DNA from: Candidatus Dojkabacteria bacterium
Lineage (GTDB): Bacteria > Patescibacteriota > Dojkabacteria > JAOAGR01
Direction: 5' to 3'
NCBI GenBank assembly: GCA_025999155.1
Contig: AP026679.1
Coordinates: 400,699-464,698 of the forward strand
DNA: 64,000 nucleotides
The number at the start of each line of letters is the position of its first letter. Within the stretch, counting starts at the first letter, position 1. Shown here one piece after another: positions 7,278 through 38,677 of the stretch. Under the pieces are notes generated by a model. It had not been told where the DNA came from and did not search any database. It was given only the letters and a program-made list of their open reading frames with translations. The translations under genes and the position numbers were made by a program.

Positions 7278-7283
7278 TATAAG

Positions 7284-7510
7284 TCAAGAGAAAAAGGCAT
7301 TTGGTGCGAGCCTTTTACCTCAGATTCCGAGGCAAAGGAATCGAATTTCAACAACAAAATATTTAAACAAAGGGCCCTGTATATAACACAGGGAATAGGG
7401 GTGGTAACACCGTTGAGTTTTATAATGGATAATGTAGCCGATCATGTTTCAATGGTCCCTAGATTCAGGCTTAATTTATTTAATCCTGAATCTAGGGATT
7501 TTTTATTTTA
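7284..7510 (+). promoter_or_regulatory. probable T-box riboswitch leader (tRNA-Phe responsive) upstream of pheST
   Basis: The T-box-like sequence 'aataggggtggtaacaccg' (7398-7416) fits 'AGGGUGGNACCG' with N=U, complementary to the A73 discriminator of tRNA-Phe. A Stem III-like hairpin 'ccctgtatataacacaggg' precedes it. A UUC-containing candidate specifier region 'cctcagattccgagg' lies about 90 nt upstream. It ends with a strong intrinsic terminator immediately 5' of pheS. Confidence 0.5.
7457..7510 (+). terminator. rho-independent terminator of the pheST leader (13-bp perfect stem + U-run)
   Basis: A 13-bp perfect stem 'ccctagattcagg ... cctgaatctaggg' is followed by 'attttttatttta' and ends 10 nt before the pheS ATG. 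The 5' arm 'cccta' can alternatively pair with 'taggg' of the T-box sequence to form an antiterminator. Confidence 0.65.
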
Positions 7511-7519
7511 TACAAACAA

Positions 7520-8503
7520 ATGCTCGACAAAATAGAAAAAATAAAAAAGAATTTTGAATACGATCTACAATCAGACATAAATGCTACCGAACTAAAACGT
7601 AAATACTTAAGTAAAAACTCTGAGCTTTATGCGATACTTAGTAATATAAAAAATCTACCACCTGAAGAACGAAAACATGTAGGATTACAGGTTAATGAGC
7701 TTAAAGATTATATTACTTCAGTAATAGAGCAACGTAGCGGTCACAATATTACAAAGACTTCGTATTCTCACATAGACGTTACTTTGCCAGGCAAAAGACA
7801 CAAACTTGGTACCTACCATCCCAATACATTAATAGCACGCGAAATGAATAATATTTTTAAGTCATTAGGATTTTCTGTGTATGCTGGACCTGAGATAGAA
7901 ACCGACGAATATGTCTTTGAAAAATTAAACTTGCCAAAGCATCATCCTGCAAGATCTCTCCAAGACACTCTAATTATAGAAGATCCGGAAATCATATTAC
8001 GTTCACACACATCTTCTGTAGAAATTCGTGCAATGGAAAACGAAAAACTTCCATTGCGTATTGTAGTACCAGGTAGAGCTTTTCGATATGAGGATTTGAA
8101 TCAAACAAATCACTTCGCTTTTTATCAGTATGAAGGACTAGCTGTCGGTAAAAATATTACAATGGCTGATCTGAAAGGAACTTTTGAAATTTTTGCGAAA
8201 ATGTTTTGGGGACCAGAAACACAAATTCGCATTAGAGCTAAATACTATCCACAAGTTGAGCCCGGATGTGGACTTGATGTGTTGTGTGGTTTTTGCCATG
8301 GTAAAGGATGCCCTGTGTGTAAAAGAAGAGGTTGGATAGAAATTGCAGGGGGGGGAATGGTCCATCCGAATGCATTAAGATCTGTAGGAATCGATCCAAA
8401 TATATACTCAGGGTTTGCCTTTGGAATAGGATTTGATAGGACAGTTATGCAAAAATATAAAATCGACGATATCAGAAAACTATACGATGGAACCCTTTAT
8501 TGA
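7520..8503 (+). CDS. pheS: phenylalanine--tRNA ligase alpha subunit
   Basis: Class II aaRS motifs are present ('FRYEDLNQTNHFAFYQYEG', 'GFAFGIGFDRTVM'). It contains a Cys-rich insert 'CGLDVLCGFCHGKGCPVCKRRGW'. Confidence 0.9.
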   Translation: MLDKIEKIKKNFEYDLQSDINATELKRKYLSKNSELYAILSNIKNLPPEERKHVGLQVNELKDYITSVIEQRSGHNITKTSYSHIDVTLPGKRHKLGTYHPNTLIAREMNNIFKSLGFSVYAGPEIETDEYVFEKLNLPKHHPARSLQDTLIIEDPEIILRSHTSSVEIRAMENEKLPLRIVVPGRAFRYEDLNQTNHFAFYQYEGLAVGKNITMADLKGTFEIFAKMFWGPETQIRIRAKYYPQVEPGCGLDVLCGFCHGKGCPVCKRRGWIEIAGGGMVHPNALRSVGIDPNIYSGFAFGIGFDRTVMQKYKIDDIRKLYDGTLY

Positions 8504-8536
8504 CCTATTTTTAATTATTTTTGAAATTTACAAATT

Positions 8537-11101: not shown

Positions 11102-11190
11102 AGTATGTTATTCATGATACGGCTGTAAAGCTGCTAAATAATCAGCGGTAAAAAGCAGAAGGATATACGTATAAAATAAATCGTCTAGAT

Positions 11191-11511
11191 TTAAGAGTTT
11201 TTATTTACAAAATCTTTTAATCGTCTATCAAGTTCCCTCCAATTCGGTAAAAATATGTTCATATAGCTCTTCCATAGAGGTCCATGGTTAGCCACCCTGA
11301 AGTGTAATAACTCATGCACAATCACATATTCTCCTAATTGTTTGTCCATTTCCAGAAGCTCATCATTAAAATTCAGATTCCCTTTTGTAGAACAAGAAGC
11401 CCATTTATTTCTCATAGGACGCAGATAAATAGAGGCTACTTTTACATCTAGTAAAGAAGCCCAAGATAATACGACAGCCTTAAATTCTGCTTTATCTTTC
11501 CAATAGTTCAT
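11191..11511 (-). CDS. DUF45/YgjP-like (M48/WLM-type) zinc metallohydrolase, HExxH
   Basis: The motif 'HELLHF' (HExxH) is present in a ~100-aa protein. Its start overlaps the hsdR stop by 4 nt, the known YgjP-type accessory position downstream of type I hsdR genes. Confidence 0.6.
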   Translation of the reverse strand: MNYWKDKAEFKAVVLSWASLLDVKVASIYLRPMRNKWASCSTKGNLNFNDELLEMDKQLGEYVIVHELLHFRVANHGPLWKSYMNIFLPNWRELDRRLKDFVNKNS

Positions 11512-14429
11512 TTGCTTTGACCAAGCAATAGTCTAAAAATATTGTCTACAATAGAAGTTAAATTATCAAGATCATCAATTGATTTATACAATTCTATAGT
11601 TACGTTTTGCCGTACCTCCCGCATCATATGCCCACTAAAACGCCACTCAGTATTTTCTTCCAAAATAGTTTTTATTCTTTTTGCGATACCTATTGAATTA
11701 TACGTAACTACTGGTTCAATTTCTTTATGCAGAAAAAAAGTTAAATCATCTAATTTCAATCTAGCCTGCTCTTTTTTACGAAGTTCATTCTTCTTGATCT
11801 CATCAAAAAGCATTTGAAGTGCTTCACCTGTTGATAATTGACGGTTTTCATACTGTTCCTGTATTTGCTTAGCACGTTCTGCCATCACAAACAAAAACGG
11901 GTCACCACTGTGTTCTTCAGCAACTTTTTGAATACTTTTGATCAAATTGATTACTTTTATATTGTCACTGTATCCTTTTTGTTTGATTATATCGATCGTT
12001 TTTTCATTTATCTCAATAATATCGTTAACAGGAATAAACCCATAAGCAACGATATGTTCTCTGACAAGCTCATAAGTCTTATTTAGTAATTCTTTATCAA
12101 TATATGTCTTTTTCGAATAAGCATTACGCACTATTTGATACATGGATGCAAATAATTTATAAGAATCTAAATAATTCCTCAAAAATGGATCTGGAGAAAT
12201 GATCTCATATAGCATCTCGCATTCTTTGTATTCTTTAAAAAATTCTTTTCTTTTATCTTTATCACGAAAGTATTCAATAAGATTATCCACATCTTTATCA
12301 TTAAAATTATTTTTAATCAGTCTCAGATATTCTGGTACTTTACTCTCCATTTTGCTTTTGAATGAAGCTTTTAAAAGATCAATATCCTTGACAGTAGCAT
12401 TTATCTCATCCGTATCAAAAGAAAGAGCTTGTTCGAGTTTTTCAAATATACCAATAAAATCAAGTACAAAACCATGTGGTTTTACCATTTCGAGTGCTTC
12501 GTTCTCATACGGTCTATTTACACGGGCAATAGTTTGTAGAAGTGTATGGTCACGCATCGGTTTGTCGAGATACATAGCATAGAGAATCGGCGCGTCAAAT
12601 CCTGTCAAAAGTTTTTCCGTAACAATCAGTATTTTAGGAAGTTCTCCGTATTGAGTAAAAGATTTTCTTATTTGTCGCTCTTTATTTTCATCAAGATGGA
12701 ATTCCTTTAGAAGTGGAGAGTCATTATTATTGCCAGTATATACGACAACAGAATATTCCGGTGGTAAATATTTATCTAAAGCCTTTTTATAATAGGCACA
12801 TGCTTCACGATCTACAGCAACCAAAAACGCCTTATAGCCTAATGGTTCGACATTTTTTCGGTAATGTTCTGCAACAAAACATGCAATCTTATCAATACGA
12901 TCCTTTGCCTTCAGGAAACTCTTGAGGTTTACAGCCTTATCTAAAATTTTATTTAATTCGTCTATATCAGAAATACCTTGAGCTTCTGTAAGTGATAAAA
13001 ATTCTTTATCTAATTGTTCATACGGTACACGCATCTCATTAGGTGCAAGATTGTAATATAGAGGCAATGTTGTACCATCAGCTATACTCTCGGAGATCGA
13101 ATATTTATGTAAGTAGCCTTTTTCATCATCCATGCCAAAAGTTTTAAAAGTACCTCTTCCATAAGCTGTTTTGTCAACAGGGGTACCTGTAAAGCCAATA
13201 TAAGTTGCATTGGGAAGGCCAGCCATAAGATAATTACCCAGATCGCCTCCGGTGGTCCGGTGTGCTTCATCAATGAGAACAAAAATATTACTGCGGGTAT
13301 TGATATTAGCCGGCATATCACGAAATTTATGAATCATAGAAACAATAATGCCGCGATAATCGCTTCTTAGAAGTTCGTTTAACCTTGCTATGTTGTAGGC
13401 ATGTTCTACATTATTGATACCGAGAGAACGTAAATTCTTGATCATCTGGTCTTCCAGTTCATTACGGTCAATCAAAAGTATAATGGTAGGTTTCTCATGC
13501 TTTGGTGCCTTAAAAAGCATTTCAGCAGCTTTTATCATAGTGTATGTTTTACCTGATCCTTGAGTGTGCCAGATGAGTCCCCGTTTCTTAACAGGATCGT
13601 GCGAGCGTTCTAGTATTTTTTCTACAGCCTGGACCTGATGCTGCCTCAAAATAAACTTACTGAGTTCTTCGTCCTTTTCGGCAAAGATTATGAAATTTTT
13701 TATAAATGCCAAAACCTGCGGGATAGAGAAAAAAGTTTTTACCTTTTTTTCAAGGTTTCCTGTCTCCTCTGCTTTCCAATTAAAAATATTTCTACGGACG
13801 GTATTCCATGTAACGCCATAATAAAAACCAATAGCTTCGGTGACCGTAAATATTTGTTCTGGAACAAAAAATTCTGGAGTTTCGTTATGATATCGACGAA
13901 TTTGATCAATTCCCAAGGCAATAGCTTCATCTTTAGTAGCATTTTTGCATTCTATGACCAAAACCGGGATACCGTTAATCAGAAAGACAATATCTTCCCT
14001 GTTACCGTAGTAGCCATTATACCAATAAAATTCTTCAGTTACTTCAAAGACATTGTTTTTGGGATTTTCGTAATCGATGACTATCAAATTCAGATCGCGA
14101 TTTTCTTCTTTGCAGTAATAGATGCCTTCATTTCGCAGATATTTCAAAAAATCCCGATTTCCGTAAATGTCCGGCTTTATAGAAGTAAATGTCTTGATGA
14201 GAGATGCTTTGTTTTCGGAATATTTTGGATTAAATTCCTTTACCTTAGCAAACAACAAATCTTCAAAATAGAGAGAGGCCGTCCGGCATCGCAGCTGAAT
14301 ATTATTTGATTCATTATTAAACCCCCTCCGTTTTTCTGCTTCGGATCTATCAACGTAAATCCAGCCAATCTCCTGAGCGTATTGTAGGATACGGGATTGA
14401 ACGGTTTTATGTTCGGTTGGTGTGTGCAT
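11508..14429 (-). CDS. hsdR: type I restriction enzyme R subunit
   Basis: It has the SF2 helicase motif I 'HTQGSGKTYTM', motif II 'LIDEAHRT' and 'GFTGTP', in a 973-aa protein with an N-terminal nuclease region. It lies immediately downstream of hsdS on the same strand. Confidence 0.9.
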   Translation of the reverse strand: MHTPTEHKTVQSRILQYAQEIGWIYVDRSEAEKRRGFNNESNNIQLRCRTASLYFEDLLFAKVKEFNPKYSENKASLIKTFTSIKPDIYGNRDFLKYLRNEGIYYCKEENRDLNLIVIDYENPKNNVFEVTEEFYWYNGYYGNREDIVFLINGIPVLVIECKNATKDEAIALGIDQIRRYHNETPEFFVPEQIFTVTEAIGFYYGVTWNTVRRNIFNWKAEETGNLEKKVKTFFSIPQVLAFIKNFIIFAEKDEELSKFILRQHQVQAVEKILERSHDPVKKRGLIWHTQGSGKTYTMIKAAEMLFKAPKHEKPTIILLIDRNELEDQMIKNLRSLGINNVEHAYNIARLNELLRSDYRGIIVSMIHKFRDMPANINTRSNIFVLIDEAHRTTGGDLGNYLMAGLPNATYIGFTGTPVDKTAYGRGTFKTFGMDDEKGYLHKYSISESIADGTTLPLYYNLAPNEMRVPYEQLDKEFLSLTEAQGISDIDELNKILDKAVNLKSFLKAKDRIDKIACFVAEHYRKNVEPLGYKAFLVAVDREACAYYKKALDKYLPPEYSVVVYTGNNNDSPLLKEFHLDENKERQIRKSFTQYGELPKILIVTEKLLTGFDAPILYAMYLDKPMRDHTLLQTIARVNRPYENEALEMVKPHGFVLDFIGIFEKLEQALSFDTDEINATVKDIDLLKASFKSKMESKVPEYLRLIKNNFNDKDVDNLIEYFRDKDKRKEFFKEYKECEMLYEIISPDPFLRNYLDSYKLFASMYQIVRNAYSKKTYIDKELLNKTYELVREHIVAYGFIPVNDIIEINEKTIDIIKQKGYSDNIKVINLIKSIQKVAEEHSGDPFLFVMAERAKQIQEQYENRQLSTGEALQMLFDEIKKNELRKKEQARLKLDDLTFFLHKEIEPVVTYNSIGIAKRIKTILEENTEWRFSGHMMREVRQNVTIELYKSIDDLDNLTSIVDNIFRLLLGQSK

Positions 14430-14556
14430 ATTTGGCCTCCATTAGCATCTGATATTGCATTTGATACAGAATTTTACCTTATTTATGTAAATTTATTTAT
14501 CCATTATGAATTTGGCCAAATATACATTTGTGATCTTTCACGCACGTTGTAATAAA

Positions 14557-14604
14557 ATACGCACCCGGTTGGGAATAATCGTAATCCGGTAGGCGTATTT
14601 TTTT
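14557..14604. terminator. hairpin + T-run between hsdS and hsdR (possible bidirectional terminator/attenuator)
   Basis: An imperfect ~10-bp stem 'atacgcacccgg...ccggtaggcgtat' is followed by 'ttttttt' on the + strand. Read on the minus (coding) strand, the hairpin is followed by the weaker U-rich 'tttatt'. Confidence 0.3.
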
Positions 14605-14624
14605 GCGTTCTGGATGAGACATTT

Positions 14625-15932
14625 TTATTCCTCCATTTTCAAAAAATCCAAATTTATCTTGTCTACCCTCACCCTTGCTGTCATTAATTCATGCAGCAAG
14701 GTACGAAAAAGTTCTTCAAGTTTTTGTTTTTTAGTGGTGTGATGTTCTATTTTTTGGTCGATGGTGGAGAGGATATCGACAATGGCTTGCTGCTCTATTT
14801 TATCAAATGTCACAGGTATTTTGATTTTTGTAAATTGACCTTTACTCAAAATATTTTTAGGTCCAAATGATGAAATATTCTTTATATAGCTTGAATAAAA
14901 AGTCAAAAGATAATAAACAAAGTTAAAGTTATATTTCTCATTACAAATAATGGAATTAATTTGTTGATTTGTGCAAGATATTTCTTTATAAGTTATGCCA
15001 GTTTTTCCTATTGTTGAACCAATACATACAAACATAACTGTGTTTTTAGGTAAAACTCTTGCAACAGATAGACCTTTGGATGATATTTTATTAATTGATT
15101 CATAAACAAATTTTGTTTTACCTAAATCAGAGGGTCCAATAAAATCAAATTCTTCTGGTTGATAATAGTCTTTAATCGATGTTCTTGGTGTTGTTCCTGT
15201 AATACAATTACCTAATTCCCCCAACCTCACCACCTCCCAGCTTTCGGGTATGGGGCCTATTTCGGTTTGTTTTTGGCTGGTTTCGACTCCGCTCAACCAG
15301 CCAATGCCTTCGGTAAAAAGCTTTTGCATCATTGATTTTTTGAGTTCTTTTGTGCGTTCTATGAGTGTTTTTTCCGTTTCAATGGCTTTCTGCACCGTTG
15401 AGAGAATAGCGGCAATCTTGCGCTGCTCGGGAAGTGGGGGAAGGGGGATAGAAAAAGCATTCAGCTCACTCCTATTGAAACCCGCTTGTACTGCTCTTCC
15501 ACCTCCTAATCCTTTAACGAAAATCTGAAAATCACGCTGATGCAAACGATAGTAAAGAAAAGAATTATCGATTTTTTCGGGATTATTTATGACTTTCACA
15601 ATTGCCACGTTTATTGCTCCGTGTTTTCCTCGAAGAATTTTGCCTACTGACCACCCATATCTTGCAATTAAAACGTCTTCCGGAGAAACCATCCTTAACT
15701 TACTGCTTATCGGGACATATGTAGCATAATCATCAGATTCATAATCTCTGATTTGTAAAAGTCTAACATAGCCTTCTTTCGGTTCATAAGTAAAAACTGA
15801 CTTCGGTGGTTGAGATCCTCCTTGAAATATACAAACCTCCCCCAACCTCACCACATCCCACTCCTTTGGCAGATGGCCGAGTTCGGTCATCTTGTAGCCA
15901 TTGGCTATCTCAGTATTTTTTTGTTCTTTCAT
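14625..15932 (-). CDS. hsdS: type I R-M specificity subunit (two TRDs)
   Basis: Two TRD N-boxes ('EWDVVRLGEVC', 'SWEVVRLGELG') and the central and C-terminal conserved HsdS helices ('LPPLPEQRKIAAIL', 'KIEQQAIVDILSTIDQKIE') are present. Confidence 0.9.
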   Translation of the reverse strand: MKEQKNTEIANGYKMTELGHLPKEWDVVRLGEVCIFQGGSQPPKSVFTYEPKEGYVRLLQIRDYESDDYATYVPISSKLRMVSPEDVLIARYGWSVGKILRGKHGAINVAIVKVINNPEKIDNSFLYYRLHQRDFQIFVKGLGGGRAVQAGFNRSELNAFSIPLPPLPEQRKIAAILSTVQKAIETEKTLIERTKELKKSMMQKLFTEGIGWLSGVETSQKQTEIGPIPESWEVVRLGELGNCITGTTPRTSIKDYYQPEEFDFIGPSDLGKTKFVYESINKISSKGLSVARVLPKNTVMFVCIGSTIGKTGITYKEISCTNQQINSIICNEKYNFNFVYYLLTFYSSYIKNISSFGPKNILSKGQFTKIKIPVTFDKIEQQAIVDILSTIDQKIEHHTTKKQKLEELFRTLLHELMTARVRVDKINLDFLKMEE

Positions 15933-15967
15933 ATTTACAATAGTTCAAAGCTCACTTATACATCTAC

Positions 15968-16262
15968 ATCGCTCCCTTCGACTTCGCTCCCTTCGGCTTC
16001 GCTCAGGGAGCGAGGGGACGGTGGTTGAGCGGAGCCGTCGGTGGTTGAGCGGAGCCGTCGGTGGTTGAGCGGAGCCGTCGGTGGTTGAGCGGAGCCGTCG
16101 GTGGTTGAGCGGAGTCGAAACCACCGACACAATTCAAATTCAAAGACTTCATTCCCTTCGATCTTGCTCCCTTCGACTTCGCTCCCTTCGGCTTCGCTCA
16201 GGGAGCGGGAAGACGGTGGTTGAGTGGAGTCGTCGGTGGTTGAGCGGAGCCGAAACCACCGA
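15968..16262. repeat. GC-rich tandem-repeat island: 15-mer x3, 20-mer 'gtcggtggttgagcggagcc' x5, then a second copy of the module with 20-mer x2
   Basis: Read directly from the sequence. The 15-mer 'gctcccttcg(a/g)cttc' occurs in triplicate and ends in a small hairpin 'cgctcagggagcg'. Five perfect or near-perfect 20-bp tandem units follow at ~16018-16117, ending in the stem-loop 'cggtggtt...aaccaccg'. The whole ~125-170-bp module is duplicated at 16141-16262 with only two 20-mers. GC content is ~60% in a ~33% GC background. Confidence 0.9.
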
Positions 16263-16563
16263 CATAATTCACATGACTACTCTCATTCATACACTTAGCC
16301 AGTTCATGCAATTTTTCAGGCATATTCATTATCAGCGCTTTCTTCTTTTTTCGACTCCATCCTTGTACCTGTTTCTCCCTGTAAAATGCTTCATCTATCC
16401 TGCTGTATTCTTCAAAATAAACTAATTTCACCGGCAAGCGCTTTTTTGTGTAATTCGATCCTTGGCCTGCCTGATGCTGTGCTAATCGTAATTCCAAGTT
16501 AGTTGTACTACCAGTGTAATAGCTACCATCTGCGCATTCCAATATATACATGTATCCTTTCAT
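16198..16563 (-). CDS. GIY-YIG nuclease domain protein (UPF0213/YhbQ-like); C-terminus runs into the repeat island
   Basis: The N-terminus 'MKGYMYILECADGSYYTGSTTNLELRLAQH...' has GIY-YIG motifs (Y..Y..GST, R, E, N). The C-terminal ~30 residues ('VGGFGSAQPPTTPLNHRLPAP') are encoded by the GC-rich repeats. It is inserted between hsdM and hsdS. Confidence 0.65.
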   Translation of the reverse strand: MKGYMYILECADGSYYTGSTTNLELRLAQHQAGQGSNYTKKRLPVKLVYFEEYSRIDEAFYREKQVQGWSRKKKKALIMNMPEKLHELAKCMNESSHVNYVGGFGSAQPPTTPLNHRLPAP

Positions 16564-18128
16564 ATTCCCAATCTTTCAATAATATTTTTTAATTTGCTAT
16601 TAATATCTACAGCTTCCATTTCTAACTCTTTTATCTCTTCCCATATCTCCTCGATTGGACGGTACTCTTCCTCCTCGCTAATGTGAATATAACGGCTCGG
16701 TGATATGTTGTAATCGTTTCTAACTATCTCTTCTTTAGCCACTATTTTGCTAAACTTATCAATCTCTTTCCAACCTAAAAATGTAGAAGTAATCTTTTCT
16801 ATTCCTTCATCAGTAATGTAGTTTTTTGGCGTACCTTTCGCAAACTCCTGCGAAGCATTGACTAAAAGCATCTTATTTTTGCGATCAGCAGGTTTATTTT
16901 TATTCAAAAAAATCACTATACCTGGCGCTGTTGTGTTGTAAAACAAATTTTCAGGTAGATACAAAACCCCTTCTATATAATCATTCTCGACAAACCACTT
17001 GCGTACTTGTTTTTCTTTGTTGGTATTTGCATTCCCAGATCCACGGCTTGCTGCACCAGTATCTAAAACAACAGCGGCTTTTCCCTCTTCCTTTAAACTT
17101 GCCAAAATATGCTGCATCCAACCCCAATCAGCACTTTGTTTACCAGGGAATCCAGCGCCATTCGGAAAGCGACCAAAGGTATCTGCATCATAATCCCTTT
17201 CATCAAACATATCCTGATTCCACATCGGATTGGCAACGACTCGATCAAAAGTCACTAAACGATTATTTTCGCGAAACTTGGGATTGCGAAAAGTATCGCC
17301 AATCTCTATGTGCCCCTCCATATCGTGGATAATCATATTCATATTTGCCATTGCCCATGTTTGAGGAACAAATTCCTGTCCATAAAGCTTAAGGGGTTGA
17401 AATTTTTTAATCTTTTTTGCTTTCATTTTCTCATTCAAAACAATTTGGCACTTGATGAGAAGCCCTGCAGAACCACAGCAAGGGTCATAAATCCACATAC
17501 CAGGCTCAGGGTCCATGATTTTTGCCATGATTAAACCAACTTCTTTGGGAGTATAGAATTCTCCAGCACTTTGACCGCCACCTTCGGCAAATTTTCGAAT
17601 CAGGTATTCATAGCTACGGCCAATGATGTCCGGTTCAACATCATCAAGCCCAAGCCTCTTTTGACTTATTTTTTCAATTAAATTAGACAGGCGGTCATCA
17701 TCAATATCCCGCACTCCGTGGGTGGTGGCGTTAAAATCTATGCGATCAATAATGCCCGAAAGTCTAGGATTTTCTCTCGCTATATCACGCAAATGAGATG
17801 TAAGTTTTTCTCCGATTTTATCGGTAAGTTTACGGATAACAGACCAAACAGGTTCTTCGGGATTTTCGGGTCTAAAAGGTATATAAAAACGAACTAGTTT
17901 TTTATCACGATCTACCAGTTCAAAAGCCTTTGCTCGCGAACCAACTTCTTTAGCAAATCTGTCGATTTCATCGTCAAATACATCACAAAGCCTTTTTACA
18001 AAGATTAAAGGTAAAATAAAATCTTTATACTTGCTAGCATCCTGAGCGCCTCGAATGCTACAAGCAGCATCCCATATCCATGATTCCATTGATTTGTTTA
18101 ATTCATTGTTTTTAGATTCTTTTGTCAT
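16560..18128 (-). CDS. hsdM: type I R-M N6-adenine DNA methyltransferase subunit
   Basis: It has the HsdM N-terminal helical domain, the SAM motif 'DPCCGSAGLL' and the catalytic motif 'ANPMW' (an NPPF/W variant). Its stop overlaps the GIY-YIG ORF start by 4 nt. Confidence 0.85.
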   Translation of the reverse strand: MTKESKNNELNKSMESWIWDAACSIRGAQDASKYKDFILPLIFVKRLCDVFDDEIDRFAKEVGSRAKAFELVDRDKKLVRFYIPFRPENPEEPVWSVIRKLTDKIGEKLTSHLRDIARENPRLSGIIDRIDFNATTHGVRDIDDDRLSNLIEKISQKRLGLDDVEPDIIGRSYEYLIRKFAEGGGQSAGEFYTPKEVGLIMAKIMDPEPGMWIYDPCCGSAGLLIKCQIVLNEKMKAKKIKKFQPLKLYGQEFVPQTWAMANMNMIIHDMEGHIEIGDTFRNPKFRENNRLVTFDRVVANPMWNQDMFDERDYDADTFGRFPNGAGFPGKQSADWGWMQHILASLKEEGKAAVVLDTGAASRGSGNANTNKEKQVRKWFVENDYIEGVLYLPENLFYNTTAPGIVIFLNKNKPADRKNKMLLVNASQEFAKGTPKNYITDEGIEKITSTFLGWKEIDKFSKIVAKEEIVRNDYNISPSRYIHISEEEEYRPIEEIWEEIKELEMEAVDINSKLKNIIERLGI

Positions 18129-29515: not shown

Positions 29516-29592
29516 CGGGGAGTAGTTAAGTTGGCTATAACGCTTGGTTTGGGACCAAGAGGGCGGAGGTTCGAGTCCTCTCTCCCCGACCA
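29516..29592 (+). tRNA. tRNA-Pro(UGG): tRNA-Pro (anticodon UGG), encoded CCA
   Basis: The sequence 'CGGGGAG...CTTGGTTTGGGACCAAG...GGTTCGAGTCC...CTCCCCGACCA' gives a perfectly paired 7-bp acceptor stem and the anticodon loop TTTGGGA. Confidence 0.8.
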
Positions 29593-30356: not shown

Positions 30357-31238
30357 ATGTCTCATGATTCACACAATACACAAAACAATGCAGGCATCAA
30401 TAGTCTGCACATAAACTCCACACAAAATAGTCAATACCATCCAACAAATGTACACACTGTATCAATAGGAAATACAGTATATTCCCAACAGGCACATCCA
30501 TCGACATATCAAGGTCCCCAGAATCCTCAAGTAGCCCAAATGCCTCAGTCAACTCCACAAATGCCAGGAACTACTAATTCTCCTAATTATGTCTACAATC
30601 CTGCTTATGTGATAAGACAAGCCGAAAACAATGATTCAAAAGTACTTATAAAAATATTTGCTATTACATGCGGTATAATATTGATAATATGTTTATGTTC
30701 TGTGGTTTGTTTTGTTATTTATGCCCTATCTCTCGAGACACCGAGCACAGTAGGATCAACTAATACATCAATTACACAAACTACACCTACACCAAAATCT
30801 ACAAATCAGGCGGGTTCAGTGTCTGTCACTCCTACACCAAAAAGCCAACCTCCAGTGCAATCAACATATAAAGTCGGGGAAAAAATACTAATAGATGACT
30901 TAGAAATCACTGTCGAAGAAGTAAAAGATGACGTAATAGCAAAATTCCCAGTAGAAGGGAAAAAATATATAGCAGTCTTCATATATGCCAAAAATAATGG
31001 CACAAAATCTGTGAGTGTAAACTCAAGCGATTTCAAATTAAAGACATCGGACAATACTCAATACAGCCCATCTGTTGTAGAAAAGACAGAGCCAAATTTT
31101 GGTTACGCTAGTATAGATCCTAATACCGCAGTCAGAGGATGGGTAACTTATGAAATACCACAAGAAGCTAAGGGACTGTCGTTGATTTACACCTCAAATA
31201 AAGGATCTACAAAAATTACGGTTGATTTGGGATTATGA
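30357..31238 (+). CDS. membrane-anchored DUF4352-domain protein (paralogue 1)
   Basis: A Q/N/P-rich N-terminus, one TM helix and an S/T/P-rich linker are followed by a C-terminal DUF4352-like Ig-type domain ('YKVGEKILIDDLEITVEEVKD...KKYIAVFIYAKNNGTKSVSV...AVRGWVTYEIPQEAKGLSL'). Confidence 0.6.
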   Translation: MSHDSHNTQNNAGINSLHINSTQNSQYHPTNVHTVSIGNTVYSQQAHPSTYQGPQNPQVAQMPQSTPQMPGTTNSPNYVYNPAYVIRQAENNDSKVLIKIFAITCGIILIICLCSVVCFVIYALSLETPSTVGSTNTSITQTTPTPKSTNQAGSVSVTPTPKSQPPVQSTYKVGEKILIDDLEITVEEVKDDVIAKFPVEGKKYIAVFIYAKNNGTKSVSVNSSDFKLKTSDNTQYSPSVVEKTEPNFGYASIDPNTAVRGWVTYEIPQEAKGLSLIYTSNKGSTKITVDLGL

Positions 31239-31350: not shown

Positions 31351-32220
31351 TTGAACTTTATCATATCTATGTCTCAGGATTCACAGAATAAAAAAACTGA
31401 AATCGGCATCGGCAGTGAAAACATAAACACTGAACAAAATAAACAGGATGAAATATACTTCGTTGAGAAAAAGTTAGAAGATATGTTCAGAGACAATACT
31501 GCATCATCTGAGCATGCCAGTCAGACAACATCTCGACCACCTGATTATCTCGTCAATATTGCAAATGAGACAAAACAGCCTGAAATAGGTATTTTTTCCT
31601 TTTTTAAAAGCATATTTAATGGGATAATGTGGATCCTCAAACACAGATTATTAGATATCTTTTTAAAGATGTCTATTTTTGTTCTTCTGACTTTCTTGTA
31701 TCTTAGTGTAAAGAGCATGAACAACTCAAAGAATGATTCTACCACGTCCACATCAACATCATCATCGACATCAACACCAACGCCCCAGGGAAGCTATCTC
31801 TATATTACTCCTACACCGACAAACCGACCTCCAGTGCAATCAACATATAAAGTTGGGGAAAAAGTAATTGTAAATGACTTAGAAATCACTGTAGAAAAAG
31901 TAAAAGATGTAGTAGCCAAATACCCTACAGAAGGCAAGAAATATATAGCAGTATTACTGTACATAAAAAATAATAAAACAAAATCTGTCAGCATAAGCGA
32001 GCGATATGATTTCATATTAAAAGCATCGGATGATAGTCAATATAGTCCATCCATCGTAGAAAAAACAGATCCGGCCTTAGGTTTTGCAACTGTTTTTCCG
32101 GACAATGCAGTGAGAGGATGGATCACTTATGAAATACCAAAAGAAGCTAAAGGTCTATCGTTGGTTTTTGATTCGTCAATTACTGGAGGGAGTTTAATCA
32201 AAGTAGAACTAGGATTGTGA
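31351..32220 (+). CDS. membrane-anchored DUF4352-domain protein (paralogue 2, tandem duplicate)
   Basis: Its C-terminal ~150 aa are ~70% identical to the upstream paralogue ('PPVQSTYKVGEKVIVNDLEITVEKVKD...AVRGWITYEIPKEAKGLSL'). The upstream leader and 'MS(H/Q)DS' start are also duplicated. The N-terminal regions diverge. Confidence 0.6.
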   Translation: MNFIISMSQDSQNKKTEIGIGSENINTEQNKQDEIYFVEKKLEDMFRDNTASSEHASQTTSRPPDYLVNIANETKQPEIGIFSFFKSIFNGIMWILKHRLLDIFLKMSIFVLLTFLYLSVKSMNNSKNDSTTSTSTSSSTSTPTPQGSYLYITPTPTNRPPVQSTYKVGEKVIVNDLEITVEKVKDVVAKYPTEGKKYIAVLLYIKNNKTKSVSISERYDFILKASDDSQYSPSIVEKTDPALGFATVFPDNAVRGWITYEIPKEAKGLSLVFDSSITGGSLIKVELGL

Positions 32221-32859: not shown

Positions 32860-35418
32860 TCAGCACTCCCCCCACACCCTATCAATTACTTTTTTGATTT
32901 TTTCTTCGTAGGTTTTGATCATTTCTCGAAGGCTGTCTATCACCCTCCGCTCGGCTTCGATTTTTTCGACAATACACTGCTGGATGTCAAGTGGCGGAAG
33001 GGGGATTTGATATTCCTGTATAAAAAAAGCTGGTACTCTCTGTAATCCACCTGTACCTGTCATCATTTTAGCCCCTTCTTTTATGAATCTATTAGACGAA
33101 ATATACGGATAAATGTATTCAGAAACAATTTTTTCTTTAATTGGTCTTAAAACATGAAGTTCACTTGAACCAAAGCCTATTCCATTTTTTAAATTACGTG
33201 CAATTCCGGACTTACCATTTTCAAAACAAGGAGTAACTTTGGCAACTAAAACGTCGTTTTCTTTGAAATTTGTATAACCTTTGTATACTTCTGAAAGTTT
33301 TTTTTCTTTTTTAGGTATAATATCCTGTACTGTACCAATATCTTCCATAGGTAAAAATGAAACGGTTATGTCGTCATTAAGGTTGGCAACCTCAGATTTT
33401 TTTGGATTTATCTCACACACCTCCCCCAACCTCACCATGGGCCAGCCGTTGGCTAATTCTTCTTTTTTTTCGGGATGTTGGGCAAGGTAGTTTTTTAATT
33501 CTTCTTCGAGATAGGTTTCTATATCAGGCTTCCAGGCATCTATCACCTGCCTGCAGCCGTCGATAAGCTTCTGATAGCCTTCTATCTCTGCCACTATCTC
33601 CTGCTGCACTTCAAGGGGTGGGAGGGGGATTTGAATTTCAATAAAATCTGATGTTGGTATAGTTCTTCTGCGGTTGGCTGTCCCTATCATTTTTGACTTA
33701 TAAATTTTTCGTGCTTGTTTAGAACGAAATATTATTTCCAAATAAGGGATGTAACTATCAGTTTCTTTTTTTAACTTCCAAATGTTGTATGCAGGACTTA
33801 CAGCTGCAACTTCATATTTTGTTTGAAAACCAAGGACACCTTCATCAATAGGAAAGCCAACCACTAATTCATTTTTAAAAACTTTTTTATAGTTCTGAGT
33901 GTTTTTGCTTGCTATACGTTTTTTAAACTTTTCTTCTTGATCGATCAGCCCTTTGTACATAGTAATAGACATAATTGGCAAATTCTCATTGCCAGCTCTG
34001 TCCTTTCCAGATAATTCTATAACTTCCCCCAGCTTCACCATCGGCCATTTTTGGTGTTTGCGTTTTTCTACCACTCTATATCTATCGCCGGTGAGGTTGT
34101 ATTCGCCGTTTTCGGCAAGTGTTGATTTTTTGACGAGTAGGGGACTACATGGCTTATTTTCTAGCGTGAATTCGTCTACTTTATTCTTTCTAACAGCATT
34201 TTTATACTCCAAAATGACTTGTAAAGCATCAGGTAAATCATTCTTATCGATAGGACGGCGTTGTGCTCCTAAATCATAACCATCATTCTCAACCTTGATA
34301 AATAATATGCTGTCAGTTTTCCTCGCCAAATCCTTATCTATCAATAAAATCGAAGTCTTGACCCCCGAATAAGGCAAAAAAACCCCAGCCGGTAACGAAA
34401 CTACCGCATATAGATTAGCATCCTCTACTAATCTTTTTCTAAGTTGCTTGTATGCTTTAGCACTTTGGAAAATAATCCCTTCCGGTACTACTATTCCTGC
34501 CCTGCCATTGTAAATGCTCAAATGATCAATTATATAATCAACAAACAAAACCTCTGCTCGTTTTGACTGAATAGAAAAACGACTATGTGGCATTATGCCC
34601 CCTTTAGGAGTCATAAATGGTGGATTAGCCAAAATAACGTTAAAATTATCATCCCATCTGTCAGTACTACTCAGAGTGTCATACTCGTATATGTGAGGTT
34701 CACGAATATCATGCAAAAACATGTTCACAAGCGATATTCTCACCATATCAGGCGAAATATCATAACCAACAAGATTATCAGTCAATCTATCCCTTTCCGA
34801 AGGACTAAGAGGAGTATCCTTATTTTGATCCAAAATATATTTATACGCAGAAATCAAAAAACCAGCAGTACCACAAGCAGGATCGCAGATCTTATCGTTT
34901 TTAGTTGGTTCTACAGCATGTACTATAAAATCAATAATATGCCTCGGCGTACGAAATTGCCCAGCTCCACCTTGTGCAGCCATCACCGACAAAAGGTATT
35001 CATAAGCATCTCCCAGGTCTTCACTATGCTCGTATTCGAATTCATCAATGACCTTTAGGAATAAATTCAAAGTCTCAGGACTATTAAATGACAAAAAAGC
35101 ACCTCTAAAAATATCCCTAAAAATTTGTTCAATATTGGGATTTAATGACATTTTCTCCAGGGCTTCCTTGTATAATTTCAGCCTGTTTTCACCTCCTAGA
35201 CCCGGATCCATAAGCTTACTCCATGCATATTTCTCGTACTCCCCACGAAAAAACGTCCTTTGACCACCCATTGCCTCAGACTTGCTGTCCATATAATCCA
35301 TAAATTTATAAATCAAAGCTAGCGTGATCTGCTCCACTTGGGCCTTTGGATCAGGTATTTTGCCTACTAGAATATCACGGGCAGTATCTATTCTTCGTTT
35401 TGTCTCTGCATTTAACAT
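32860..35418 (-). CDS. fused type I-like R-M methyltransferase-specificity protein (HsdM domain + two TRDs)
   Basis: The N-terminal ~420 aa carry the HsdM helical N-domain 'IDTARDILVGKIPDP...ALIYKFMD', the SAM motif 'DPACGTAGFLI' and the catalytic motif 'LANPPFMTPKGG'. The C-terminal ~430 aa carry two TRDs, each with an N-box ('WPMVKLGEVIEL', 'WPMVRLGEVCEI') and a conserved HsdS helix ('LPPLEVQQEIVAEIEG', 'LPPLDIQQCIVEKIEAE'). Confidence 0.8.
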   Translation of the reverse strand: MLNAETKRRIDTARDILVGKIPDPKAQVEQITLALIYKFMDYMDSKSEAMGGQRTFFRGEYEKYAWSKLMDPGLGGENRLKLYKEALEKMSLNPNIEQIFRDIFRGAFLSFNSPETLNLFLKVIDEFEYEHSEDLGDAYEYLLSVMAAQGGAGQFRTPRHIIDFIVHAVEPTKNDKICDPACGTAGFLISAYKYILDQNKDTPLSPSERDRLTDNLVGYDISPDMVRISLVNMFLHDIREPHIYEYDTLSSTDRWDDNFNVILANPPFMTPKGGIMPHSRFSIQSKRAEVLFVDYIIDHLSIYNGRAGIVVPEGIIFQSAKAYKQLRKRLVEDANLYAVVSLPAGVFLPYSGVKTSILLIDKDLARKTDSILFIKVENDGYDLGAQRRPIDKNDLPDALQVILEYKNAVRKNKVDEFTLENKPCSPLLVKKSTLAENGEYNLTGDRYRVVEKRKHQKWPMVKLGEVIELSGKDRAGNENLPIMSITMYKGLIDQEEKFKKRIASKNTQNYKKVFKNELVVGFPIDEGVLGFQTKYEVAAVSPAYNIWKLKKETDSYIPYLEIIFRSKQARKIYKSKMIGTANRRRTIPTSDFIEIQIPLPPLEVQQEIVAEIEGYQKLIDGCRQVIDAWKPDIETYLEEELKNYLAQHPEKKEELANGWPMVRLGEVCEINPKKSEVANLNDDITVSFLPMEDIGTVQDIIPKKEKKLSEVYKGYTNFKENDVLVAKVTPCFENGKSGIARNLKNGIGFGSSELHVLRPIKEKIVSEYIYPYISSNRFIKEGAKMMTGTGGLQRVPAFFIQEYQIPLPPLDIQQCIVEKIEAERRVIDSLREMIKTYEEKIKKVIDRVWGEC

Positions 35419-35430
35419 AGATTCATAAAT

Positions 35431-37911
35431 CTACACAAAAGCATTCAGATCAATATTTTTACGGATAAAATCAACAACCAAGTCCAAAATTGTTTGTAGA
35501 TTTTCGATATCTTCAAGAGATAATTTAGGATTGGTACAAAGCCTGGAATACTGCTTACTATCGATAATATCACGAATATCTCCATCAGTAACATATATCT
35601 CAATAAAATCCCTCAATAGTTTCCTATCGACATCAGGATTATGAGCATTTAAAAATTTAGTAAAAACCTCGTCTATCAAATCATCCTTTGTCTTAATCTT
35701 AGGAATACGACCGAGAATATAGCCAATTATTTCCTTCACCGAAACCTTTCTATTCACATCTAAAGCCTTAGCTAATTTATCCAAATTAAAGTAATATTCT
35801 GGTTTATTAAATAAATTCTGATCTACATACTCTTCTAACTTATCATACTCCTGATCCTCATAAAGCCTATTGATAATAGGATCAATCTTCACATCATCAG
35901 CAAATCTATCAAAAAACTTCCTATCTATCTTCATACCTTCGGCACCAATATGCGTTTTGGTAATAGTTTTGATTGGATCAGGAATAGATATGGTTACCTC
36001 ATCGATACTTATAGATTTAGTCTCGTCCGGTGAGTCTATCCTCTCACTTGATATCGGTAATTTCAAAACCCGATCATAATCAAATTTCTCCTCAAAATAC
36101 TCACAATTAGCAAAGAAATCAAAAAGATAAAATTCTTTCTTGTCTATCTTGATTTCTTGGCCATTTTCATCGGTATAGGAAAAAGTATGTGTACGCGTAC
36201 CACGCCCTTTGATCTGAATAAAATCAGTAGGTGAAAAAATCGGCCTCATCAGACAAATATTCAAAATATCCTGACAATCATATCCCGTCGTCATCATATT
36301 GACTGTCACACATACGCGTGTCTTGCTTGATTTGTAGCCTTCTTTGAATTTTGTCACACCATTGAGATTATTATTAGCAAATTTCTGTGCATAGCTTTGT
36401 GCATCATGAATATTCGATGTTACTTGTACCGCAAAATCAGAATTATACATTCCTGGCCAATATTGATCAGCTAAGTGATTGAGAATAGCTGTAATCTTTG
36501 ATGCATGATTTTGACTCACACAAAATACCAGAGTCTTGCCAATTTCCCCGCTTATCGGATCTCTCAAAGCATTATCCAAAAAAGCCTTACAAAAAGCGTT
36601 ATTTGTCTCTCTTGAGAAAAATCTTTTCTCAAAATCCTTTGAAAAAAAGACTTTTTCACTTTCATCTCCTTCCTCAGTACGTACTACCGTAGCATAGCCC
36701 TGATCAGAGAGTAATTGTGTAGTGATATGAGTTCTAGCATCATATACGACTGGATTGATTAGGTAGCCATCTTTGACTCCATCTATCAAACTATAGCGAA
36801 ATGTAGGTTCGCCCGATGGACATCCAAATGTATTATAAGTATCCAATAATTGACGACGTTCAAAAGCCCTAGGATCTTCTTGACTTAATTTCTCAATGTC
36901 TACATTCCTTAGATAATCTCTAGGTGTAGCAGTAAGTCCTAACTTATACCCAATGAAATATTCAAATACATCACGACTATTGCCCGAAATCGATCTATGC
37001 GCCTCATCCGAAATCACTAATTGAAAATCATGGGGAAGAAATAATCTACGATACCTATTATCCTTCAATAAACTCTGAACCGTAGTGACCACAATATCAG
37101 CGCTATTCCAAACATCACGATTCTCTTTATAAATCACTACCCTGAAATCTTTTTTGAGTAATTGAACAAAACTTTGATATGCCTGATTTTCTAATTCTAT
37201 CCTGTCCACTAAAAAAAGTACCCTTATGGCATTTCTAGTTTTTAAAAATAGTTTAATGATAGCCGCAGATAATAGAGTCTTACCTGTACCCGTCGCCATC
37301 TCCAATAAAAACCTTGTCTTACCTTCTTTTACAGCTTGTTGGATAGCATGGATAGCCTTGAGTTGGTAATGTCTGAGAAATTTTAGTTGATTATCTTTGA
37401 TAAATTTTTGCCTTGTAGATTCATCTAGCCACTCAGGATGACTCTTATAATCACTTATCTGAGTCAAGACTACAAAATCACTTTCGACTTTTTCACTAGC
37501 TAAGGCATCAAAATCAAATTTGTACTCTTTGACTCCTTCTATTGATTTTAAAGAAGGAAATTTCTCGATCTGTACAGGATTACCATGGTTCAAATCCCAG
37601 AAATAATGAGTTTCACCATTGGACAAAATTACATAATTTACACCCATGGCCCATGCATATTCACGGGCTTGTTCTTTAGCATCCAAAGGATCTTTATGAG
37701 CAGCCTTCGCCTCAATAACTATGATTGGAGATTGATTATCATCAAGAAGTACATAATCTATAAACCGTACTCCTGATCCATCTCCAGTATTTATATGTAC
37801 TGTAACTTCAGTTCTGACATTTGCTCTCTTGCCATTGGTATTTTCTAGCATCCAACCGGCCTCTTCCAGTAATTTGTTGATTTTCAACCTGGCATCAGAT
37901 TCTTTTGGCAT
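35431..37911 (-). CDS. type I-like restriction subunit: N-terminal PD-(D/E)xK (HSDR_N/Mrr-like) nuclease + SF2 DEAH helicase
   Basis: The N-terminus 'RFIDYVLLDD...IIVIEAKAAHKD' is a D...EAK nuclease core. Helicase motif I 'LEMATGTGKTL', motif II 'VISDEAHRS' and motif VI-like 'QIKGRGTR' follow. It lies 12 nt upstream of the fused MS gene on the same strand. Confidence 0.75.
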   Translation of the reverse strand: MPKESDARLKINKLLEEAGWMLENTNGKRANVRTEVTVHINTGDGSGVRFIDYVLLDDNQSPIIVIEAKAAHKDPLDAKEQAREYAWAMGVNYVILSNGETHYFWDLNHGNPVQIEKFPSLKSIEGVKEYKFDFDALASEKVESDFVVLTQISDYKSHPEWLDESTRQKFIKDNQLKFLRHYQLKAIHAIQQAVKEGKTRFLLEMATGTGKTLLSAAIIKLFLKTRNAIRVLFLVDRIELENQAYQSFVQLLKKDFRVVIYKENRDVWNSADIVVTTVQSLLKDNRYRRLFLPHDFQLVISDEAHRSISGNSRDVFEYFIGYKLGLTATPRDYLRNVDIEKLSQEDPRAFERRQLLDTYNTFGCPSGEPTFRYSLIDGVKDGYLINPVVYDARTHITTQLLSDQGYATVVRTEEGDESEKVFFSKDFEKRFFSRETNNAFCKAFLDNALRDPISGEIGKTLVFCVSQNHASKITAILNHLADQYWPGMYNSDFAVQVTSNIHDAQSYAQKFANNNLNGVTKFKEGYKSSKTRVCVTVNMMTTGYDCQDILNICLMRPIFSPTDFIQIKGRGTRTHTFSYTDENGQEIKIDKKEFYLFDFFANCEYFEEKFDYDRVLKLPISSERIDSPDETKSISIDEVTISIPDPIKTITKTHIGAEGMKIDRKFFDRFADDVKIDPIINRLYEDQEYDKLEEYVDQNLFNKPEYYFNLDKLAKALDVNRKVSVKEIIGYILGRIPKIKTKDDLIDEVFTKFLNAHNPDVDRKLLRDFIEIYVTDGDIRDIIDSKQYSRLCTNPKLSLEDIENLQTILDLVVDFIRKNIDLNAFV

Positions 37912-38063
37912 TATTTTCTACACAGACTAAATAAAAATGTAAATCTCTCGATAATTATAATATTTATTCATTAGTTTTTGTTGAAAAGCTTTTATTCATG
38001 AGTAATAAAAAATAGGGAAGTACAGAGACTTCCCTTGATTATAGATTAGCTTATACTTGGCTA

Positions 38064-38537
38064 TTATTCGGATTTGATAGTTATTTGCTTTGGCTTATTC
38101 TGGGCAACCTTTGGTAGTTTCAATTCTAAAACACCGTTTTTCATCTTAGCTTCAATCTTTTCTACGTCTACATCTCCCGGCAATGTAAATGTCTGCTCAA
38201 AATAAGTCTCTAATCTATTCAAATAATATTGTCTGCCTTCTTCAGACTTTTCTTCCTCTTTCTTACCGCCTTTGATTCTGACTACATTGCCCTCGACTTG
38301 TACATCTACATTATCTTTATCAACTCCAGGTAATGCCATTTTGATGAAATAATTTTCATCTTCTTCCCAGACATCAGCCATCGCCATATTGTAATTAAAA
38401 CTAGGCATCAGTGATCTATTAAATACATCATCAAACCATGACTGCATGGATAATAATTCATCCAACATATTCCTTAGAGGTGAATATGCTGGGTTTGTTA
38501 ATGATCTTTTATTATTGTTTATTCTCATTATTCTCAT
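38064..38537 (-). CDS. Hsp20/alpha-crystallin small heat-shock protein (start reassigned to SD-proximal ATG)
   Basis: The alpha-crystallin domain reads '...FIKMALPGVDKDNVDVQVEGNVVRIKG...GVLELKLPK'. A strong RBS 'AAGGAGGG' sits 7 nt upstream of the ATG at 38537 (protein MRIMRINNN...). The ORF-track start at 38654 adds an unlikely hydrophobic leader. Confidence 0.75.
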   Translation of the reverse strand: MRIMRINNNKRSLTNPAYSPLRNMLDELLSMQSWFDDVFNRSLMPSFNYNMAMADVWEEDENYFIKMALPGVDKDNVDVQVEGNVVRIKGGKKEEEKSEEGRQYYLNRLETYFEQTFTLPGDVDVEKIEAKMKNGVLELKLPKVAQNKPKQITIKSE

Positions 38538-38632
38538 AGTTCCCTCCTTTTTAAATAAAGATAAAATTTTTATAAATAAACCAAAAACTAATTTAAATAC
38601 ACTAAAAATATTAATATAAAGGCCAGATGGCC

Positions 38633-38677
38633 ATGCTGGATAGTAATCCAGCATACTAGATCATTTATGCAATGATC
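38633..38677. promoter_or_regulatory. two adjacent palindromes in the Hsp20 / 617-aa-ORF divergent region (candidate operator)
   Basis: 'ATGCTGGAT-AGTA-ATCCAGCAT' (perfect 9-bp arms, 38633-38654) is followed by 'GATCATttatgcaATGATC' (38659-38677), ~95 nt upstream of the Hsp20 start. It matches neither CIRCE nor HAIR consensus. Confidence 0.3.

Follow-up and report, generated by a model that had tools for sequence, protein, structure and literature searches.

The window analyzed here is a 64,000-nt stretch of contig AP026679.1 from a Candidatus Dojkabacteria metagenome-assembled genome (MAG; GCA_025999155.1, positions 400,699 to 464,698), and it carries on its reverse strand two adjacent genes that together resemble a Type I restriction-modification (R-M) system. 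The upstream gene, hsdR-like, encodes a restriction/translocase protein (R), while the gene downstream of it on the same strand, hsdMS, encodes a protein (MS) in which an HsdM-type methyltransferase is joined to an HsdS-type specificity part with two target recognition domains (TRDs). The junction between the two open reading frames (ORFs) reads TAG atttatgaatct ATG. R is 100% identical to hypothetical protein KatS3mg084_0397 of a Candidatus Dojkabacteria MAG, and MS is 100% identical to NCBI entry KatS3mg084_0396, likewise a hypothetical protein of a Candidatus Dojkabacteria MAG. An earlier note on this DNA had proposed a two-gene Type I-like R-M module with a real HsdM-HsdS fusion and two TRDs, and the ORFs, the Pfam domains and the layout predicted by AlphaFold2 (AF2) bear this out; the ORF sizes that it gave (826 and 852 aa) and the 12-nt spacing also agree with the coordinates and with the TAG-ATG gap read in the sequence. 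The coordinates of these features and of their surroundings are collected in Table 1.

Table 1. Features of the R-MS locus and its surroundings, in window coordinates (SF2, superfamily 2).
Feature	Position	Strand	Description and evidence
hsdR-like gene (R)	35431..37911	(-)	826 aa restriction/translocase subunit; ORF call with Pfam, NCBIfam, PADLOC and PDB matches
R aa 1-120, PD-(D/E)xK nuclease domain	37552..37911	(-)	D52, E67-A68-K69, Q81xxxY85; Pfam HSDR_N_2/HSDR_N
R aa 176-590, SF2 motor	36142..37386	(-)	Pfam ResIII, DEAD, SWI2_SNF2, Helicase_C and motif conservation
R aa 591-826 and stop, family-specific C-terminal region	35431..36141	(-)	Alignment conservation and AF2
R-MS spacer	35419..35430	(-)	12 nt between R stop TAG and MS start ATG; read from sequence
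hsdMS gene (MS)	32860..35418	(-)	852 aa fused methyltransferase and specificity subunit; ORF call with Pfam and PADLOC
MS aa 1-130, HsdM-type N-terminal helical domain	35029..35418	(-)	PADLOC MTase_I coverage; helical in AF2
MS aa 131-447, gamma-class N6-adenine methyltransferase core	34078..35028	(-)	Pfam N6_Mtase, 186 bits; HsdM structure matches
MS aa 448-457, 10-residue linker in place of the HsdM C-terminal tail helix	34048..34077	(-)	No long helix predicted at aa 447-458 (AF2)
MS aa 458-600, TRD1	33619..34047	(-)	PADLOC Specificity_I and AF2
MS aa 601-652, central conserved region	33463..33618	(-)	Helix 602-628 and helix 633-647 predicted by AF2
MS aa 653-806, TRD2	33001..33462	(-)	Pfam Methylase_S 658-822; about 655-806 in AF2
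MS aa 807-852 and stop, distal conserved helix 810-849	32860..33000	(-)	AF2, blocks of pLDDT 89-97
Promoter-like site upstream of R	37957..37984	(-)	TCAACA-16-TATTAT in an AT-rich stretch; consensus scan only
Terminator stem-loop of the HSP20 gene	38014-38035		Upstream of R, before the promoter-like site; read in sequence
HSP20 ORF	38064-38654	(-)
Unnamed ORF, 617 aa	38879-40732	(+)	Large ORF in very AT-rich DNA
Unnamed ORF, 598 aa	40726-42522	(-)	Large ORF in very AT-rich DNA
tRNA-Pro	29516-29592		3.3 kb from MS stop
Tandem paralogous gene 1	30357-31238	(+)	C-terminal DUF4352 domain
Tandem paralogous gene 2	31351-32220	(+)	C-terminal DUF4352 domain
Conventional Type I hsdM	16560-18128	(-)	~14.7 kb from the R-MS operon
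GIY-YIG nuclease ORF	16198-16563		121 aa, between conventional hsdM and hsdS
Conventional Type I hsdS	14625-15932	(-)
Conventional Type I hsdR	11508-14429	(-)

Pfam places HSDR_N_2/HSDR_N at aa 28-118 of R, ResIII/DEAD at 179-332 and Helicase_C at 456-574. In an alignment of R with 29 homologues (A1, 30 sequences) the nuclease residues D52, E67-A68-K69 (PD-ExK) and Q81 and Y85 (the HsdR QxxxY motif) are invariant, as are the motor motifs, namely Walker A (204-212), DEAH (302-305), LTATP (326-330), TTGYDC (541-546) and QIKGRGTR (566-573). The N-terminal PD-ExK nuclease and DEAH helicase attributed to R in the earlier note are thus in place, with the catalytic residues kept throughout the alignment. 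PADLOC labels R as REase_I, and its top-scoring NCBIfam model is the EcoAI/FtnUII (Type IB) HsdR family NF046051 (E=2.7e-70, best stretch aa 8-332), where a score of 237.7 bits falls below the curated cut-off of 550, so R is not assigned to Type IB by this model. By both sequence and fold, the closest solved structures are the Vibrio vulnificus HsdR fragment 3H1T and then EcoR124I HsdR, and the R model matches the HsdR structures 3H1T, 4BEB, 7BST and 6H2J. The authors of 3H1T themselves compared this fragment with subtype IB proteins (PMC2777439).

The C-terminus of R had been described as short, which is incorrect. This region (residues 591-826, ~235 aa) is conserved across the 30 aligned sequences, and residues 664-825 are predicted to be all-helical, with block-mean predicted local distance difference test (pLDDT) values mostly between 76 and 88. 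Pfam EcoEI_R_C matches here below threshold (E=0.005, 17.4 bits against a cut-off of 24) and in 2 of the 30 members. Classical HsdR is thought to contact the methylase through a helical C-terminal domain (PMC2777439), and by analogy the last ~160 aa of R would be the presumed methylase contact. A search with R found at least 120 clusters of homologues of ~835 aa at 55-61% identity. Across the family R comes in two sizes, ~840 aa and ~720-757 aa; the shorter clade (38-44% identity, Dehalococcoidia/Chloroflexota loci L043-L047, L049, L051 and L055) lacks ~100 residues from the central part of the C-terminal region while keeping the last ~90, and it pairs with one-TRD as well as two-TRD MS proteins.

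Turning to MS, Pfam finds N6_Mtase at aa 132-454 (186 bits) and two Methylase_S stretches, and the PADLOC MTase_I model PDLC03021 scores 347 bits over aa 1-470, compared to a total of 96 bits for a Type IIG model whose best-scoring stretch lies in the TRD2 region. Since the NCBIfam hsdM equivalog reaches 76.6 bits against a cut-off of 242.75, the methylase is best described as HsdM-like and not as an equivalog. Motif I (DPACGTAGF, 179-187) precedes motif IV (NPPF, 265-268) and the TRDs are C-terminal, which places the methylase in the gamma class, and the core closes with a GEYNLTGDRY motif (438-447). The matches in the PDB by sequence are HsdM chains (5YBB_A, 2OKC and EcoKI M), and for the V. 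vulnificus fusion 7EEW sequence similarity is confined to the M core (aa 111-368, E=1.5e-26). With the MS model as a Foldseek query, 7EEW came first, followed by HsdM chains (2OKC, 3UFB, 5YBB_A, EcoKI, PacII) and the S chain 7VRU_C. The N-terminal domain (aa 1-130) is 60-68% identical across homologues, and in the E. coli and Paracoccus relatives described below HsdM_N gives weak scores of 20.7 and 18.4 bits against a Pfam cut-off of 24.5.

The AF2 model of MS (pLDDT 87.1, predicted template modelling score (pTM) 0.58) lays out an HsdM N-domain and core, a 10-aa linker, TRD1, a helix, TRD2 and a second helix. In classical enzymes the HsdM tail helix helps bundle M onto the S helices, and in the 7EEW structure of the V. 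vulnificus fusion this helix is reportedly present. The conventional HsdM encoded elsewhere in the window continues for ~42 aa after its NDYNISPSRY motif, judged from sequence to be the expected place of the tail helix. In MS, just 10 residues lead from GEYNLTGDRY to WPMVKLGEV at the start of TRD1. Because the M tail is absent (10 versus ~42 residues), the join between M and S is not a plain read-through of an hsdM stop codon.

The specificity part of MS is covered by the PADLOC Specificity_I models (PDLC03079) at aa 457-822 with 165-220 bits. Among homologues the M region is 60-71% identical and the conserved helices are ~66-92% identical among the closer ones (80-92% for the central conserved region among close homologues, 66-86% for the distal helix among the closest, P0002-P0015), and on this constant frame the TRDs form a mosaic. 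In P0002-P0011, TRD2 matches that of MS at 93-96% identity, the M domains match at 69-71%, and TRD1 is unrelated to TRD1 of MS (26-27% at best locally). P0012 instead shares TRD1 with MS at 81% identity, its TRD2 reaching 30%; for TRD1, most other homologues reach only 20-30%. The TRD2 type of MS is also found in position 1 in P0023, P0031, P0041 and others. This shuffling of TRDs on constant M and helices, as seen in HsdS, speaks for two functional TRDs that can be exchanged independently as recognition modules, and hence for a bipartite target.

The search with MS returned at least 8000 matches, and our description of its homologues rests on the best 120, which are nearly all 810-880 aa, almost all with whole-query coverage, and 44-68% identical. 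These come from Ignavibacteria, Spirochaetota, Chloroflexota, Acidithiobacillus, Saprospiraceae, Patescibacteria and others, and some MS homologues are named 'restriction endonuclease subunit M/S' by NCBI. Overall, the MS family comprises hundreds of 50%-identity clusters. To look at the M part separately, MS aa 1-455 was searched against 1.84 billion representatives, giving 1015 matches at E<=1e-30. By length, the best 150 of these fall into relatives of 720-899 aa (82, read as having two TRDs), 560-719 aa (41, read as having one TRD), 900 aa or more (16) and less than 560 aa (11, mostly visibly truncated), and no unfused HsdM was seen among the 150. With almost all of these relatives fused, fusion characterises the whole clade, which includes single-TRD relatives of 590-700 aa in the same family. 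The two of the longest relatives that were scanned (P0284, P0357) show only M and two Methylase_S stretches, and in the relatives of 900-1053 aa (P0274, P0284, P0287, P0354-P0383) the extra 100-200 residues are insertions, partly inside the M domain.

Synteny was examined in 65 loci from a scan of GTDB species genomes, spanning about ten phyla. In 54 of the 65, MS is immediately preceded on its own strand by an R homologue, mostly full-length and 39-57% identical; the other 11 comprise six with MS at a contig edge, four with partial or distant matches and one (L053) that is a true absence. The gap from R to MS is at most 140 nt in ~30 loci, with a few ORF calls overlapping, while most of the remaining loci have a gap of 0.2-2.5 kb holding inserted genes, and a few of the large gaps reflect frameshifted ORF calls. 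No third conserved gene was found on either side of the pair in the 54 loci, where the commonest family occurs in 5. The genes inserted between R and MS (loci L002, L003, L004, L005, L006, L011, L022, L025, L029, L033, L038 and L040) include, by Pfam, PDDEXK_3 (GxxExxY-type) repeatedly, Fic/DOC, DUF3800, KilA-N and IS200, as well as an IS21-like transposase recognised by eye, and they look like hitchhikers typical of restriction operons. Locus L053 (Dehalococcoidia, OZ240222.1; MS homologue at 8001-10325) has 8 kb of DNA upstream of MS and no R homologue anywhere in the 18-kb locus, and may represent an orphan methylase or a decayed system.

Members of the family are also carried on plasmids. 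Paracoccus zhejiangensis plasmid pPZ02 encodes R and an 858-aa two-TRD MS (40% identity) as the pair WP_232816715.1 / WP_101754820.1, and a module on E. coli IncF plasmids encodes an 849-aa R, 52% identical to the window R over its full length, and a 677-aa fusion of M with a single TRD, 52% identical over aa 1-458. Of 5426 complete E. coli genomes, 78 have this IncF module, in every case on a plasmid (for example NZ_CP116482.1, L066, where it spans 4406-11954), and the pair, WP_053320758.1 / WP_000887497.1, carries no annotation beyond 'DEAD/DEAH box helicase family protein' and 'N-6 DNA methylase'. A third gene of the module encodes a 951-aa TrlF-family AAA/ABC-type ATPase, which may be an added defence or abortive-infection partner; a literature search for 'TrlF' returned only unrelated spectroscopy papers.

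Fusions of HsdM and HsdS have been described before. Roer et al. (2012) fused hsdM and hsdS of EcoKI and found that hsdR was the only addition needed for restriction and modification in vivo, and they named 'Type IMS' an arrangement in which an MS protein with two TRDs, or one, works with a separate HsdR (PMC3510504). Active MSfus, M1/2S and M1/2Sfus variants of the S. aureus CC398-1 system were made by Bower et al. in 2018, and there too the M-S fusions restricted and modified in vivo with HsdR as the sole addition (PMC6158711). A natural M1S1/2 fusion from V. vulnificus YJ016 has been crystallised (7EEW), and according to a paper citing that work two of its chains recapitulate M2S1 (Seo et al. 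2022, cited in PMC12429846). We found no paper on a natural two-TRD R and MS family or its biochemistry in the full-text literature, REBASE lying outside the search, and beyond reviews, the literature on M-S fusions yielded only engineered examples and the V. vulnificus protein with its single TRD. The term 'hsdMS' in Pseudomonas papers stands for separate genes. The earlier note had called the system atypical, which was an overstatement, given that Type IMS is already named, a natural single-TRD fusion has been crystallised and the family spans hundreds of clusters.

The window locus has both structural hallmarks of Type IMS, with M and S in one 852-aa ORF and a separate HsdR gene 12 nt upstream. 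Like the engineered EcoKI and S. aureus fusions it has HsdM N-terminal to HsdS and a separate HsdR; however, the engineered proteins were made by removing the hsdM/hsdS frameshift and keep the whole of HsdM including its tail, whereas the fusion in the window is natural and ancient and has a 10-residue join. The V. vulnificus 7EEW protein likewise joins HsdM to HsdS naturally within a Type I operon, and the single-TRD relatives of MS share its layout, but MS itself has two TRDs and no predicted tail helix, unlike the 7EEW type with its M-tail helix, single TRD, one conserved-region helix and (M1S1/2)2 dimer. With classical Type I enzymes (EcoKI, EcoR124I, T. tengcongensis M2S 5YBB) the locus shares an HsdR with PD-ExK, QxxxY and an SF2 motor, the gamma-class HsdM fold, two TRDs with two conserved helices, and TRD shuffling. 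It differs from the R2M2S1 plan with three subunits in having two genes, one M per S module and no M tail helix. Type IB (EcoAI/FtnUII) provides the best named match for R and the weak EcoEI_R_C-like C-terminal signal, but in Type IB the M and S proteins are separate. TstI is a single-chain enzyme with one methylase domain followed by two TRDs. The same order is found in the Type IIB/IIG enzymes AloI and CjeI, whose 1:2 ratio of methylase to TRD has been termed 'a mystery' (PMC3874165). Type IIB/IIG enzymes (AloI/CjeI/BcgI) combine nuclease and methylase in one chain, lack a helicase and ATP-driven translocation, and cut at set distances to either side of the site; in this locus, MS carries no nuclease domain and R, the motor protein, carries the nuclease.

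Taken together, we consider the locus to be a natural two-gene Type I-like R-M system in the Type IMS arrangement, with a probability of roughly 85%. For its enzymology, the contact between R and MS and the stoichiometry we infer the following. MS would bind a bipartite DNA target through its two TRDs, held apart by an antiparallel pair of conserved helices, and its HsdM-type domain would methylate the target adenine at N6 with S-adenosylmethionine as the donor. R would dock on MS, probably by way of its helical C-terminal domain, and on an unmethylated target it would pull in flanking DNA with ATP until the PD-ExK nuclease cuts at a distance. The assembly we prefer on DNA is R2(MS)2, in which one MS chain would supply both TRDs and one methylase domain, and the second would supply a methylase domain only, its own S part being idle. 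In the single-TRD relatives, the core would be a symmetric (M-S1/2)2 with two methylase domains.

Several points weigh against this interpretation. The HsdM tail helix is absent from the predicted structure of MS, which complicates the docking of a second M domain, and at a pTM of 0.58 the arrangement of domains in the MS model is unreliable. The R model is poor, with an overall pLDDT of 65.6 and a weak second RecA domain, because the alignment behind it is too uniform (79% mean column identity), leaving as its usable parts the nuclease, the first RecA domain and the helical domain at the C-terminus. No activity, recognition sequence or methylome was found for this organism or for any member of the family. 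Finally, the engineered EcoKI fusion needed added free HsdM for cleavage in vitro, and Roer et al. judged R2(MS)2 to be the less likely option for it (PMC3510504).

The assembly that Roer et al. favoured for the EcoKI fusion, where HsdM had to be added and traces of HsdM co-purified (PMC3510504), is R2-M-(MS), in which proteolysis or premature termination at the M-S junction frees some M from the fusion and restores R2M2S1. For the window protein this seems improbable, since the released fragment would have no tail helix with which to bind the S helices; the 10-aa junction is moreover kept as an open frame in more than 100 homologues. Somewhat less unlikely is a monomeric M1S1, in which a single MS chain on the bipartite site methylates only the adenine beside the TRD that its one methylase domain can reach, marking one strand, with control similar to that of Type III or Type ISP systems and unlike that of classical Type I. 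The single methylase domain for two TRDs, the missing tail helix that would recruit a second M and the lack, within the operon and its flanks, of a stand-alone hsdM from this family all fit M1S1. However, the single-TRD relatives with the same R imply that a two-methylase core is the ancestral working unit, R is HsdR-like and not like Type ISP or Type III Res proteins, and marking one strand would leave one daughter duplex unprotected after replication unless there were a site-orientation rule, to which nothing points. A second HsdM could also be borrowed from the conventional Type I system ~15 kb away in the same window, which we regard as highly improbable, and this candidate was rejected on the 23% identity between the two M domains. 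The R proteins are only 24% identical, and the R-MS pair also occurs alone on plasmids. Members of different Type I families are known not to complement each other.

Two further explanations concern the origin of the two-gene layout. The earlier note had likened it to a Type ISP enzyme split after its helicase, and indeed the gene order, nuclease-helicase and then methylase-TRD, is the domain order of LlaGI (PMC3874165), with the same order of functions, nuclease, motor, methylase and TRD, in LlaBIII. Even so, on motifs, domains and family matches a split Type ISP enzyme is very unlikely, as R carries the hallmarks of HsdR. Type ISP enzymes have an Mrr-like nuclease (typically PD-QxK) and a single TRD, and are set apart in this way by the review description (PMC3874165), whereas R has D52..E67-A-K69, QxxxY and HSDR_N, and MS has two TRDs. 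The M part also fits HsdM-type models far better than the Type IIG model, and a Type ISP enzyme is a single polypeptide, while here two ORFs are divided by a stop and 12 nt and this split is conserved across the family. Nothing beyond the record being a MAG favours an artefact in which hsdM and hsdS, in truth two genes, were joined by an error of sequencing or assembly, and its probability is negligible. At least 120 full-length homologues from independent assemblies are all fused, the pair stands in 54 syntenic loci, the fusion recurs in complete genomes and plasmids (Paracoccus pPZ02 with two TRDs, E. coli IncF with one), and the M tail is absent, not merely read through. A sequencing-error fusion is thereby ruled out and in practice refuted by the conservation of the fusion.

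Upstream of R, the consensus scan that gave the promoter-like site found 25 sites against 25.4 expected by chance, so this site is weak evidence for a promoter. In the neighbouring HSP20 ORF, ~40 hydrophobic residues at the N-terminus precede an internal Met (MRIMRINNN...), and the true start probably lies downstream of the listed one. Two large ORFs in very AT-rich DNA also lie beside the operon, and the 617-aa one has zero Pfam matches. On the other side, a GNAT acetyltransferase gene is convergent with MS and ends 29 nt from the MS stop. The system had been placed next to a tRNA-linked island. The tRNA-Pro is there, but the island is not demonstrated, since no repeat of the tRNA-Pro 3′ end, att-like repeat or island boundary was found between 29.4 and 43.5 kb and no integrase among the window ORFs examined. 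G+C is slightly higher over the R-MS operon (0.35-0.37 versus 0.29-0.34 in the surrounding intervals), which is compatible with horizontal acquisition and no proof of it. Between the tRNA and the operon lie the tandem paralogous genes (72-77% DNA identity, period 976-1012 nt), whose proteins have a low-complexity N-terminal half, a hydrophobic segment and the DUF4352 domain. The second, conventional Type I system proposed at ~15 kb was also located, with all three hsd genes identified. It occupies the most G+C-rich part of the window (11508-18128; 0.41 versus ~0.32), and the GIY-YIG nuclease ORF is inserted between its hsdM and hsdS.

It is possible, though we hold it to be doubtful, that the tail-less two-TRD MS and its dedicated R form a distinct, widespread natural subclass of Type I with an assembly unlike R2M2S1, either R2(MS)2 with an idle S part or M1S1 marking one strand. 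If so, the assembly would also explain how one methylase serves two TRDs in AloI/CjeI-type enzymes, and the subclass would take in the E. coli IncF plasmid members, which go unrecognised as restriction systems in current annotation. As it stands, the locus is a member of a large, conserved and under-annotated family of natural Type IMS systems, a known kind of system and not a new one. RefSeq and GenBank mostly label the family 'N-6 DNA methylase' and 'DEAD/DEAH box helicase' across many phyla, including the candidate phyla radiation, and with such generic labels defence-system and methylome surveys can miss or misclassify it. Roer et al. proposed a fused Type IMS form as an evolutionary intermediate linking Type I families, and the present family is its counterpart in nature. 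For two questions raised by engineered fusions, namely how a Type I core is put together once M and S share one chain that lacks the M tail helix, and how a single methylase domain can serve two TRDs, it offers a natural test bed.

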